From positions 49,352,001 to 49,416,000 of the forward strand of contig OX597819.1 of assembly GCA_951406725.2 (NCBI GenBank): DNA of 64,000 bases, written 5' to 3'. This document shows, piece by piece, positions 6,632-64,000 of this stretch. The number at the start of each line of letters is the position of its first letter. Position 1 is the first letter of the stretch. The notes under the pieces are model-generated. The model saw only the letters and a list, made by a program, of their open reading frames with translations, did no database searches and was not told the origin of the DNA. The position numbers and the translations under genes were made by a program. Source of the stretch: Octopus vulgaris. Its lineage: Eukaryota.

Positions 6632-7030
6632 CTCTTTTACTTGTTTCAGTCATTTAACTGTGGCCATGCTGGAGCACCACCTTTAGTTGAGCAAATCGAC
6701 CCCAGGAGTTATTCTTTGTAAGCCTAGTACTTATTCTATCGGTCTCTTTTGCCAAACCGCTCAATTACAGGGATGTAAACACACCAGCATTGGTTGTCAA
6801 GCGATGTTGGGGGGACAAACAGAGACACACAAACATACACATACACATATATATATATATACATATATTCGATGGGCTTCTTTCACTTTCCGTCTACCAA
6901 ATCCACTCACAAGGCTTTGATTGGCCCCAGGTTATAGTAGACACTTGCCCAAGGTACTACAAAGTGGGACTGAACCCGGAACCATGTGGTTGGTAAGCAT
7001 GCTACTTACCACACAGCCACTCCTACGCCT
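6632..7030 (-). mobile_element. tRNA-derived SINE family A (CORE-like), full length
   Basis: Reverse complement of GGCGTAGGAGTGGCTGTGTGGTAAG...GGTTCAGTCCCAC...CCTTGGGCAAGTGTC...internal TA/CA tract...GAAACAAGTAAAAGAGT tail. Confidence 0.9.
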
Positions 7031-13249: not shown

Positions 13250-13850
13250 TATAAACAACAATTGCAGCAACGTGTCCGACAAAGCTATCAACACCAAACA
13301 GTTCCTCAGAGACCTAACCCAAAATGGCTACCCACCATCTTTAGCCAAACAACAGCGCCTAAAGAACATCAAGGTCAATAAACCCCGGAAGAACCATCAT
13401 ACTCCCAAGTCCAGCATGTCCTTCCTAAAGCTACCACACTTTGATGACAGAACTACTGTAGTGATACAACATACAGTCCACAGGGAAGGACTCGACATAC
13501 AGATAGTGCACGCTGGCCCTTCCCTGACAAAAGCTCTGTCCAAGAACAACACCTCTCATTACTCCAAGGAGTGCACATTATTGAACCTCTACATCAATGA
13601 CCCTGAATTGTGCCAGAAGGCCTATGTTGTATATGAGATAATCTGTGGCAAATGTTGCACATCTTACATAGGAAGCACAAGAAAACTGCATATATGCATT
13701 AAAGAACACATGTTGTATATGAGATAATCTGTAGCAAATGTTGCTCATCTTACATAGGAAGCACAACAAGAAAACTGTATATATGCATTAAAGAACACAT
13801 ATAAGCAGATACTTCTGTGAAGAAACATCTATGGAAATACCAGACCTGGG
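13250..13850 (+). mobile_element. Penelope-like element fragment: RT thumb + GIY-YIG endonuclease (decayed)
   Basis: ORF 13272-13727: LTQNGYP...FLKLPHF...VVYEIICGKCCTSYIGSTRKLHICIKEH, the PLE L..NGYP and VVY.I.C..C...YIG.T.R.L..R..EH motifs. Confidence 0.9.
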
Positions 13851-25738: not shown

Positions 25739-25922
25739 AGTATGAAATACACTGCAGAGACAATGAGAGCTAGAATAGTAGTAGCACCACCACCACCACC
25801 ACCACCAAAGCAACAGTAGCAACTCTGCATACTTGCACAAAGAAGCAAATCCTCAGTGCTAAGATAGAAGTTAAAAGTTGAGAAATGCAGTATGTTACAT
25901 ACTCAACAATACTGAGTTTCTT

Positions 25923-26365
25923 ATTTCTTTATTGCCCACAAGGGTCTAAACATAGAGGGGACAAACAAGGACAGACAAAGGGATTGAATCGATTATATCA
26001 ACCCCAGTGCGTAACTGGTACTTAATTTATCGACACCAAAAGAATGAGAGGCAAAGTCGACCTTGACGGAATTTGAACTCAGACCATAACGGCAGACGAA
26101 ATACCGCTAAGCATTTCATCCGGCATGCTAATGTTTCATATTTCTTTATTGTCCACAAAGGGCTAAACATAGAGAGAACAAACAAGGACAGACAAAGGGA
26201 TTAAGTTGATTACATCGACCCCAGTGCGTAACTGGTACTTAATTTATCGAACCCGAAAGGATGAAAGGCAAAGTCAACCTCAGCAGAATTTGAACTCAGA
26301 ACATAGTGGCAGACGAAATACCACTAAGTATTTTGCCCGGCATGCTAATGTTTCAACCAGCTCAC
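25923..26365 (-). mobile_element. SINE family B dimer with one TSD pair
   Basis: Two units joined at ~26135; flanked by CTCAACAA(T/C)ACTGAGTTTCTT at 25902-25922 and 26366-26386. Confidence 0.9.
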
Positions 26366-44589: not shown

Positions 44590-45080
44590 TCATCATCCTC
44601 CTCATCAACGTTTAACGTCCGCTTTCTATACTAGTATGGGTTGGACGATTTGACTGAGGACTGGCGAACCAGATGGCTGCACCAGGCTCCAATCTGATCT
44701 GGCAGAGTTTCTATAGCTGGATACCCTTCCTAATGCCAACCACTCCGAGAGTGTAGTAGGTGCTGTTACGTGCCACCGGCATGAGGGCCAGTCAGGTGGC
44801 ACTAGCAACGACCACACTCAAATGGTGTTTTTTACATGCCACCTGCACAGGAGCCAGTCCAGTGACACTTGCAACGACCTCGCTCAAATGCTTTTTTCAC
44901 ATGCCACTGGCACAAGTGCCAGTAAGGCAACGCTGGTAATAATCACGCTCAAATGGTGCTTTTAGGTGCCACCGGCACAGAAGCCAGTTTGTTGCTCTGG
45001 CAACAATCACACTCGGATGGTACTCTTAGCGCTCCACAAGCATGGATGCCAATCATGGAATTTGATTTCGATTTCGATTT
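44590..45080 (-). mobile_element. RTE LINE 3' UTR, 5'-truncated
   Basis: Reverse complement of ~56965-57440 over its whole length. Confidence 0.85.
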
Positions 45081-61233: not shown

Positions 61234-61927
61234 CATATATATCAATGCAAAACTAATATATTTAGTTTTCCCTGAAGACTGGTATAAACCAGAGAACTAT
61301 GGTGCTAACATCCTTTAAAGAATTATAGGTCCTTGATACAATTATATATATATGCATCTGTACATATGTATATGTATGCATATGTATATATGCATACACA
61401 TATATACAGACGACAATCAATGCACACATATATCGATAGAGAGAGAGACAGGTCGGTAGGTTTCTTAGTTCATGTGCTTTAGATCTGTTTCCTTATGGTG
61501 GTATAGGTTGGGGAGTTACTCATTTGAGGCAGTATTTTCATGGACAGATGCCTTTCCTGTGACCAATCTTTATTAATAGTGCAAAGGATTTCTTATTCCA
61601 CTATTCCAAGAGCACAACGCTGTATAACATAATGTTCACCAAGAATGTAAACACAACGGCACTGCTCCCTTTTGAACGAACTATCTCAATTGAGATACAG
61701 AAATGACAACCTTCACACACACACATACACACACACACATGCACCATGTTCATTTCAATTTCCATCTATCAATTTCAATCACAAGCTACTGGCCAACCCA
61801 AAATAATGGTACAAGATATTTGCCTAAGGTGCCGCACTATGAAAGTAAACCAAACATTATGTAGTTAAGAACTGCAAACACAACCATGCCTATGTCTACA
61901 TGCATATAGGTGTGTGTGTGTACATGT

Positions 61928-62550
<623 letters not shown>

Positions 62551-62595
62551 ATTTATATATTTATACATGCACACACATCCACATATATATTGATA

Positions 62596-62655
<60 letters not shown>

Positions 62656-62670
62656 TGTATATGTACATAT

Positions 62671-62728
62671 ATGTAGACACCTCTGATGAGAAGCCAATAA
62701 GGTTTGTGTATCGATTAAGGTTGTTCAT
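62671..62728 (+). ncRNA. Degenerate type I hammerhead ribozyme, copy 1
   Basis: TAGACACCT-CTGATGA-GAAGC-CAATAA-GGTTT-GTGT-ATCGAT-TA-AGGTTGTTCA; GAAA box mutated. Confidence 0.6.
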
Positions 62729-62972
62729 CGCTTTTTCAGTCTGCGGAGAAATGGCGAAAATTTGCCCTGTTTATAATTATACCATATGTTATGTATATAT
62801 TATATCATACCTTGATACTGTGTGGACTAAGATCCCCATTGATAGGTCACTGGTATTTATAGTATTAAACACTTTCAGTATGCAAATTAGTGACTCCTTT
62901 ATAGAGTAACTGCTGTATTTGTTGAGTATATAAGCAGTTTGGCTGCTTGTTTCTCTGTAGATTGTCAAAGTG

Positions 62973-63030
62973 ATGTGGATGCCTCTGATGAGAACCCAAT
63001 AAGGTTCAAAATTTGATTAAGGTTGTCCAT
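62973..63030 (+). ncRNA. Degenerate type I hammerhead ribozyme, copy 2
   Basis: TGGATGCCT-CTGATGA-GAACC-CAATAA-GGTTC-AAAA-TTTGAT-TA-AGGTTGTCCA; stem II perfect, stem I pairs, GAAA->AAAA. Confidence 0.7.
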
Positions 63031-63718
63031 CGTTTTTCCAGTTTGTGGAGAAATGGCGAAAATTTTCCCTGTTATGTGTGTGTATGTATATATATATAGG
63101 TGCAAGCAATGTTTTGGGTTCAGTCCCACTGCATGGTACTTTGAGCAAGTGTCTTCTATTACAGCTTCTACAAAGCCTTGTAAGTGGATGTGGTAGAGAG
63201 ATACTGAAAGAAATCTGTTGTGTGTATGAGTGTGCATGTATATACATGTTATTATGTCCTTGCTTTGACACCATGTAGTGTCAAATGAGTGCTATTGTCA
63301 TGCATGTGATGTTCTTTGTTTCCAATCTTGCATGAAAGCATGTCTGTTTATAGGGAAATATTACCTTATTTGGAAACAGGTGTTGATAAGTAACAGGAAA
63401 GACATCTGGCTGTAGAAAATCCACTTCAACAAATTTCATCTAACCCATGCAAAATTGAATGTTCAACCTTTGGTGAAGATGTATGTATAGTTACATATAT
63501 GTGTTTGTGAGTATATTATCTTTATCTTTCATCTTTCAGTCATGAGATTGTGGCCATGCTGGAGCATCGCCTTGCAAGAGTTTTGCTGAATGAATTGACA
63601 CCAGTACATATTTTTTTCAAGCCTAGTACTTATTTTATTGATTCCTTTTACCAAACCACTAAGTTACAAGGCTGTCTGTCAAGCCACAGTGGGTACAATG
63701 ACACACACACCACCATCA

Positions 63719-63912
63719 CCATCATCATCATCATCATCATCATTTAACATGTTTTCCATGCTGGCATGGATAGGGCAGTTTGATAGGAACTGACAAGTCT
63801 GAAGACTGCACAAAGCTCTGTTGTCTGTTTTTTCGTATGGTTCCTATGGCCGGATGCCCTTCCTAATGCCAACCACTTTACAGAGTGTACTGGGTGCTTT
63901 TTTATGTGGCAT
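63719..63912 (-). mobile_element. RTE 3' end with (GAT)n tail
   Basis: (CAT)n TTAACATGTTTTCCATGCTGGCATGG...GGATGCCCTTCCTAATGCCAACC. Confidence 0.8.
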
Positions 63913-64000
63913 TACTTGTAGGATAAGATTCCTCAACTGGGGAGAGTAGTATTGAGAAATAGAAAAAATGTCTTGCACTAGAAGAGAAACATGGCTAGCT

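Follow-up and report, generated by a model that had tools for sequence, protein, structure and literature searches.

Hammerhead repeats of other animals

Retrozymes with hammerhead ribozymes have already been described from a mollusc and many other animals, and units of the metazoan non-LTR type are given as 220–245 nt long in coral, 350–390 nt in mussel and 330 or 350 nt in axolotl (Cervera and de la Pena 2020, PMC7229834). The same account puts their target-site duplication, when there is one, at more than 4 bp, and a review (PMC7761336) describes retrozymes as seeming to have no promoters. In the minimal hammerheads of Penelope-like terminal repeats (pLTRs), as characterised in PMC4209133, helix II is 7–8 bp long with an extra base at its 5' end and helix I is short. 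Newt satellite 2 is cited at second hand, in PMC2220036, as having an internal snRNA-type Pol II promoter. Penelope-like elements, which show an insertion bias toward (TA)n and other microsatellites by the account in PMC8557442, make up 6.83% of the Octopus vulgaris genome according to a repeat paper on this species (PMC13282606), whose text and supplement, so far as available, contain no mention of ribozymes; a preprint (10.64898/2026.07.22.740005) covers 35 species, none of them a mollusc by its main text. The open literature, taken without subscription papers or repeat databases, yielded no report of a cephalopod retrozyme, and the family described below may already be catalogued. Elements of this kind are known from other animals; what is new is an octopus family that is likely a retrozyme. 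If this assignment is right, cephalopods join the animals with hammerhead retrozymes, and an abundant octopus repeat is a ribozyme retroelement.

An insertion of 1.33 units in a microsatellite

We analysed a 64,000-nt stretch of O. vulgaris DNA (contig OX597819.1, positions 49,352,001 to 49,416,000; here called the window), in which an earlier reading of the letters, the original prediction, had seen a retrozyme- or Penelope-pLTR-like unit with two hammerheads. An ungapped direct repeat of 101 bp (62671–62771 against 62973–63073; 84/101 identical; E 3.5e-25 for the 64-kb window) occurs there at an offset of 302 bases, with 201 bases between its copies and no third copy elsewhere within the 64-kb window. 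The original prediction had described a repeat of about 100 bp, which is present, though each copy is one base shorter than was given (ends 62771 and 63073); its placing of CTGATGA (62683 and 62985), ATTAAA (62864), an octamer (62880) and TATATAA (62927) was correct, and the TA/TG microsatellite that it saw around the repeat is present on both flanks. The insertion is thus 1.33 units (302 + 101 bases) of a 302-base repeat (Table 1), and the G+C content of the predicted monomer is 35%. The statement that the unit has no ORF holds in part: a 122-codon stop-to-stop frame (62541–62906) crosses it, and this frame has no Pfam match.

Table 1. Features of the octopus insertion, in window coordinates
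Feature	Position	Strand	Basis
TG/TA microsatellite upstream of insertion, likely target	62595..62670	.	sequence
Hammerhead copy 1, type I, dead	62671..62734	+	landmarks and family majority letters
Predicted 302-nt monomer, cut site to cut site, non-coding	62718..63019	+	length, GC, circular fold; no Pfam match
Extended helix I, predicted 3' arm (copy 1 tail); copy 2 counterpart 63028–63054	62726..62752	+	predicted pairing
A+T-rich segment of unit; candidate priming stretch on (TA)n targets	62772..62810	+	contig loose ends
Octamer ATGCAAAT	62880..62887	+	motif position
TATA-like box	62927..62934	+	family majority letters
Extended helix I, predicted 5' arm: 16 bp + 9 bp + internal loop + 4 bp	62949..62984	+	predicted pairing
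Hammerhead copy 2, type I, dead	62973..63036	+	landmarks, fold and family majority letters
Tail beyond second cut site; insertion 3' end, at start of A+T-rich segment	63020..63073	+	repeat alignment and family contigs
TG/TA microsatellite downstream of insertion	63074..63098	.	sequence

In the first copy, the core CUGAUGA (62683–62689) is followed by helix II (62690–62694 with 62701–62705, loop CAAUAA), GTGT occupies the GAAA slot (62706–62709), and a palindromic helix III (62709–62716) leads to a predicted cut after 62717. The second copy has its core at 62985–62991, an intact helix II and loop and a predicted cut after 63019; AAAA stands in its GAAA slot (63008–63011), so that G12 is lost at 63008, and its palindrome is broken at 63012 and 63014. 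The two copies are therefore damaged at different places, by GTGT in one and by AAAA and a broken palindrome in the other, just as the original prediction had it. The catalytic role of G12 and of A13–A15 is established hammerhead chemistry. Helix II, 5 bp long, begins directly after A9, cleavage is predicted behind UUA, helix III consists of two pairs and a palindromic tetraloop, and helix I runs for 4 bp before an internal loop or bulge and then its extension.

An Rfam scan of 61500–64000 and of 62665–63075, with E values up to 10, returned no hammerhead match, only rows driven by microsatellite or by chance, and a strict hammerhead descriptor had no match in the window. With one mismatch allowed in GAAA the descriptor found copy 2 and an unrelated site at 13309 (minus strand), against 0.25 expected per shuffled window. 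Neither window copy alone is recognisable as a hammerhead, and with both cores broken the locus does not have the two complete hammerheads in consecutive units that are given as the mark of an active retrozyme by Li et al. 2026 (10.64898/2026.07.22.740005).

A Pfam scan at cut-off of all 249 low-complexity-filtered frames of at least 55 codons in the window gave no match, and so no reverse transcriptase (RT) or GIY-YIG domain; protein atlas and tRNA scans also gave none. We rejected the spacer as the coding end of a Penelope ORF, since a search with one of the three forward frames (62661–62906) gave three matches, all taken as chance, two of them to proteins with unrelated Pfam domains and one to a repeat protein over 26 residues. 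The window is rich in microsatellites and in dispersed repeats, which we take to be SINE-like; they form families of 80–300 bp with 60–90% identity (for example 62175–62399, 6825–6941, 25922–26158 and 44590–44896), and two of them flank the unit. The translation of one neighbouring repeat matched three proteins, all hypothetical ones of Octopus vulgaris that are likely spurious gene calls; this is in keeping with an octopus host.

The repeat family and its predicted fold

Contigs from 4 of 24 listed sequencing runs were aligned to 62660–63090 at 80% likeness, two of the runs being DNA (X1, organism A; X9, organism D) and two guessed to be RNA; listed rows from organisms B–F with small shares were left out of account. 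Along the 302-bp unit, spacer included, lay 2177 contigs in X1 and 2394 in X9, so the unit is not single-copy, and up to 116–119 distinct contigs covered one site; summed contig depth is not a copy number. Depth peaks in the spacer are of the same order as those in the hammerhead, and the family unit is therefore the whole 302 bases and not just the 101-base repeat. The original prediction had taken the window locus for a decayed member of a ribozyme retroelement family whose active copies would release an RNA of about 302 nt; the family contigs support a decayed member of a many-copy, non-coding hammerhead family with a unit of about 302 nt.

Majority letters were read from a variant table in which each contig was assigned to the better-fitting copy, so that the shares given here are biased as well as depth-weighted. 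In X1, A makes up 92–96% of depth at 62707–62709, and the majority letters at 63008, 63012 and 63014 are G (83%), A (97%) and C (73%), respectively; together these letters restore both GAAA and the 8-base palindrome. A consensus of 33 loose ends in X9 has the core, helix II and GAAA in one piece directly before 62710. The original prediction had obtained an intact motif by merging the two copies, and at all 11 sites, among the 40 of 67 table rows listed, where the copies differ and one of them departs from the majority, the majority is indeed the other copy's letter; the merged sequence was wrong at 63027, where it had C and 94% of depth is T. GAAA after helix II is thus present in the family's majority letters, as is the palindromic helix III, and, as read from those letters, which together form a complete motif, the ribozyme belongs to the canonical type I hammerheads. 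It does not fit the label "minimal, Penelope-pLTR type": helix II falls short of 7–8 bp, the extra base is missing, and helix I is predicted to have a long extension.

How the units are joined is visible in the contigs. The 3' end of the spacer precedes 62671 in 20 contigs of X1 and 27 of X9, the tail-to-spacer side is crossed at 62792–62793 by 78–86 contigs, and the joints return about 300 bases, or about one unit. In one joint, from 63006 to 62757, which 2 contigs carry with 59 letters on its shorter side, a spacer is followed by hammerhead, tail and again spacer. The unit therefore closes on itself, and both junctions recur in the family. Against a purely closed unit, 45 X9 contigs stop at 62791 in (AT)n, and a different sequence stands ahead of 62795 in 28 contigs of X1 and 29 of X9, at an agreement of about 0.5; the loose ends display at most 30 letters. 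These ends at 62791 and 62795 may be ordinary monomer-insertion ends, may mark a second subfamily, or may join the unit to a longer Penelope-like element. In the alternative sequence before 62795 the nearest 9–15 letters agree across runs, and two contigs of X22, one of the guessed-RNA runs, have it too. Two deletion joints (62826–62968 and 62834–62913) occur in one contig each in both X1 and X9, which suggests that these copies are older than the split of the two organisms.

The guessed-RNA runs have 32 and 22 contigs on the unit, and 86% and 85% of the aligned material continues into unlike sequence; assembled contigs cannot display RNA circles or ends. The deepest of these contigs, X22 record 20 (262 bases, depth 285), lies on 62813–63030, entirely inside the unit, with both its start and its end close to the A+T-rich segment; at 62985, the first base of the core, C is replaced by A, which leaves the core dead. 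Its source is thus likely a dead copy that is transcribed by read-through as part of an abundant RNA.

The original prediction gave stem I as a 9-bp helix with one bulge, and overlooked its continuation into helices of 9 and 16 bp in which 62949–62975 is predicted to pair with the tail. The mean pair probabilities of these 9-bp and 16-bp helices are 0.98 and 0.92 in the circle, and 0.66 and 0.94 in the linear form with the copy 2 tail. Folded as a circle, the unchanged monomer reaches −82.8 kcal/mol, compared to −59.4 (sd 4.9) for shuffles (z −4.75; none of 100 shuffles as low), and 69% of its bases are paired; the strength of this fold is due to the helix I extension. Three of 69 control tiles have z of −4 or lower, of which the one inspected is microsatellite and the other two overlap TA arrays, and the single hammerhead copies fold unremarkably (z −0.19 and −1.30).

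Pairs were judged site by site against the majority letters rather than in a folded family consensus. Majority letters at 62962 and 63043 convert G.U to G-C in the long helix, the one at 62958 breaks a pair of the 16-bp helix, and those at 62968 and 63027 weaken one pair each. The pair 62970:62731 is A-U in the majority (84% and 87%) and G-C in the window copy, a possible covariation as judged from per-site shares. The majority letters thus back the long helix only in part, and the spacer fold is unsupported, since majority letters at 62792, 62793, 62847, 62891 and 62934 break its predicted pairs. In a small hairpin of the tail (62753–62766 and 63055–63068) the G common to both window copies pairs as G.U, and the majority T would not.

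Of the promoter-like motifs, the TATA-like box TATATAA, noted just upstream of copy 2 by the original prediction, is present family-wide just before helix I. The window copy is the weaker match, since position 62934 is A in 99% of X1 depth and 97% of X9 depth. ATTAAA had also been named in the spacer, and we rejected it as a poly(A) signal because it is private to the window locus, the family having 88% G at 62864. The octamer ATGCAAAT has five matches in the window against 8.6 expected, no commoner than chance, and no variant row among the 40 of 67 listed. Octamer and TATA box within 30–50 bases of each other occur at two distinct window sites, one of them in microsatellite, against 0.22 matches expected, a weak excess.

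The promoter of newt satellite 2 includes an octamer. Unlike it, the octopus unit has a TATA box 40 bases after the octamer, and these motifs are candidates for a promoter role. A bolder proposal is in our estimation doubtful: an octopus retrozyme with its own Pol II promoter (octamer and TATA box) within the circle, positioned so that transcripts begin immediately ahead of the following unit's helix I, would use its A+U-rich stretch to prime reverse transcription on (TA)n targets, and its younger copies would still make abundant 302-nt circles in octopus tissue. Were an internal promoter true, it would overturn the view that animal retrozymes depend on read-through, and this proposal would also give a sequence handle on the Penelope-like helper.

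Origin of the copy and competing explanations

G is common to both copies at 62756/63058, a site at which T has 99% of depth (at 62756). This one shared departure, against 11 private ones in the listed rows, means that a single template gave rise to the two repeats around when the insertion was made. Each hammerhead is present over its full length: 47 bases precede the first cut, and 54 follow the second. Reading once along a cut linear monomer cannot yield such a product; possible sources are a circle, an uncut multimer and a template jump. The insertion's 3' end coincides with the beginning of the A+T-rich segment. Many family contigs also break within this segment, so priming there on (TA)n is plausible. 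The repeats differ at 17/101 sites, which a hand calculation with the Jukes-Cantor correction puts at about 0.095 substitutions per site in each copy. This is an upper figure, inflated by the GTGT cluster and by CpG decay, which accounts for at least 4 of the 17 differences; the O. vulgaris repeat paper equates a divergence of 0.09 with 25 million years in its dating (PMC13282606). The spacer differs from the majority at 15/200 sites, the same order as the repeats.

We give a probability of roughly three in four to the following explanation. A 302-base non-coding repeat, which has many copies and whose majority letters form a complete type I hammerhead, is represented at this locus by 1.33 decayed units. 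It is likely an octopus non-LTR retrozyme, for which enzymes borrowed from a Penelope-like element would have made this copy in a TA microsatellite; their single RNA template was probably a circle that had formed after self-cutting. An intact source of two or more units would have been transcribed on the + strand, and its two hammerheads, likely paired through the 8-base palindromic helix III, would by motif prediction cut after UUA and free a 302-nt RNA. The long helix I would hold the ends for ligation to a circle, by analogy with coral, mussel and axolotl retrozymes (PMC7229834, in its account of these). A reverse transcriptase primed at nicked (TA)n would then start in the A+U-rich segment and overrun its start, laying down 302 + 101 bases. 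Subsequent decay, at the divergence given above, has cost both cores.

The family has the sequence traits of metazoan non-LTR retrozymes, namely a canonical type I hammerhead, a head-to-tail unit within 150–450 bp, G+C below 50%, no coding content and a highly self-paired predicted circle; like them it coexists with Penelope-like elements, and it is known from sequence only. No primer-binding site or polypurine tract was noticed by eye. At the locus the microsatellite occupies both flanks, where a target-site duplication would lie. Unlike those retrozymes, it has a UUA triplet, a 5-bp helix II, a family-wide TATA box and a cephalopod host, and the window copy is dead. Its helix III is weak, being made up of two pairs plus a tetraloop, and resembles that of HHR_Amex2, which cleaves better as a dimer, and its repeat of about 300 bp resembles newt satellite 2, which cleaves as dimers (both as reported in PMC7229834). 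Schistosoma mansoni Sm-alpha, in the description of PMC2632901, likewise has a six-base loop 2 of the form C...A (CAAAUA there, CAAUAA in octopus) together with an extended helix I that is interrupted by an internal loop; a loop-loop contact stays a candidate, since helix lengths differ from those of Sm-alpha (in octopus 4 bp, then loop or bulge). Sm-alpha is said in PMC2220036 to use a Pol III promoter.

Several observations count against this explanation, among them the broken cores of both window copies, the majority letters that break predicted pairs and the control tiles with z of −4 or lower. The UUA triplet is unusual: PMC1636495 names GUC, GUA, AUA and once AUC as natural hammerhead triplets, and UUA does not occur among those it names. 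The second upstream context (28–29 contigs) could be the body of a longer element. No listed contig piece spans 62660–63090, and among the listed pieces, which come from short contigs, none displays a single intact copy whole or an array of two full units; the window itself has 1.33. Finally, only one of nine predicted Xenopus retrozyme dimers cleaved in vitro, by the report in 10.64898/2026.07.22.740005.

We consider it unlikely that the locus instead derives from an autonomous Penelope-like element, as a partial tandem of its pLTR that is truncated at the 5' end. The 302 bases would then be the end of that element, copied again through template jumps along a linear RNA, and neither a free circle nor a separate retrozyme family would exist. 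Hammerheads do occur in such pLTRs (PMC4209133, as to the elements it treats), which share with the octopus unit a type I topology, a palindromic helix III suited to dimers, direct repeats and a microsatellite site. According to PMC8557442, in its account of these elements, pLTRs contain a start site and promoter and Penelope-like elements prefer (TA)n; the family-wide TATA box just before helix I, the contigs with other sequence before 62795 and the 190 Penelope-like families reported for O. vulgaris in PMC13282606 all suit this explanation. Microsatellite insertion is found at the locus, but an RT/GIY-YIG ORF between the repeats is not; no such domain turned up in the 249 frames, and the frame across the unit gave its three unrelated matches. 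The motif lacks the marks that PMC4209133 gives for minimal hammerheads, as helix II is 5 bp long with no extra base before G10.1 and helix I is long, and both unit junctions are common in the family. Retrozymes are themselves argued, in the preprint's discussion of their origin (10.64898/2026.07.22.740005), to derive from pLTRs, so that the two explanations intergrade and differ mostly in whether the unit moved on its own. The clustering of contig ends in the A+T-rich segment and the second upstream context make the mobilising element testable, and the conserved TATA box before helix I does the same for the transcription start of retrozymes.

Partial duplication of one old monomer in place, by unequal exchange or microsatellite slippage, or the landing of two truncated copies side by side, would make the 1.33-unit form uninformative about an RNA intermediate. 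The shared G at 62756/63058 fits this too, and local amplification of terminal repeats has been proposed in one section of the same preprint (10.64898/2026.07.22.740005). Late duplication would lead us to expect many shared and few private departures, the reverse of the listed 1 and 11; spacer departures are of the same order as those in the repeats, and two independent landings would not yield the family-wide junction after copy 1. We therefore hold this history to be improbable. Highly improbable, in our judgement, is a regulatory ribozyme pair adopted by the host and still cutting a read-through transcript: helix II, the loop and the long helix I of copy 2 still form in the predicted fold, but G12 is lost in copy 2, A13–A15 are changed in copy 1, and CpG-type decay makes up at least 4 of the 17 differences, which is what neutral DNA would be expected to show. 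Nothing about the window locus, where the copy is dead, points to a function for the host.

We also scanned contigs from other sources with the hammerhead pattern. Viral and prokaryote contigs gave no match in either set, and metagenomes gave seven stretches, none of which by eye resembles the octopus family beyond the pattern itself. A metagenome contig, L007, has at 21–66 a motif that resembles a type I hammerhead and includes a palindromic helix III; it is unrelated to the octopus family. The motif lies on the strand opposite to a 493-codon frame (180–1661, minus), just past the end of that frame, which by eye resembles a LINE reverse transcriptase.
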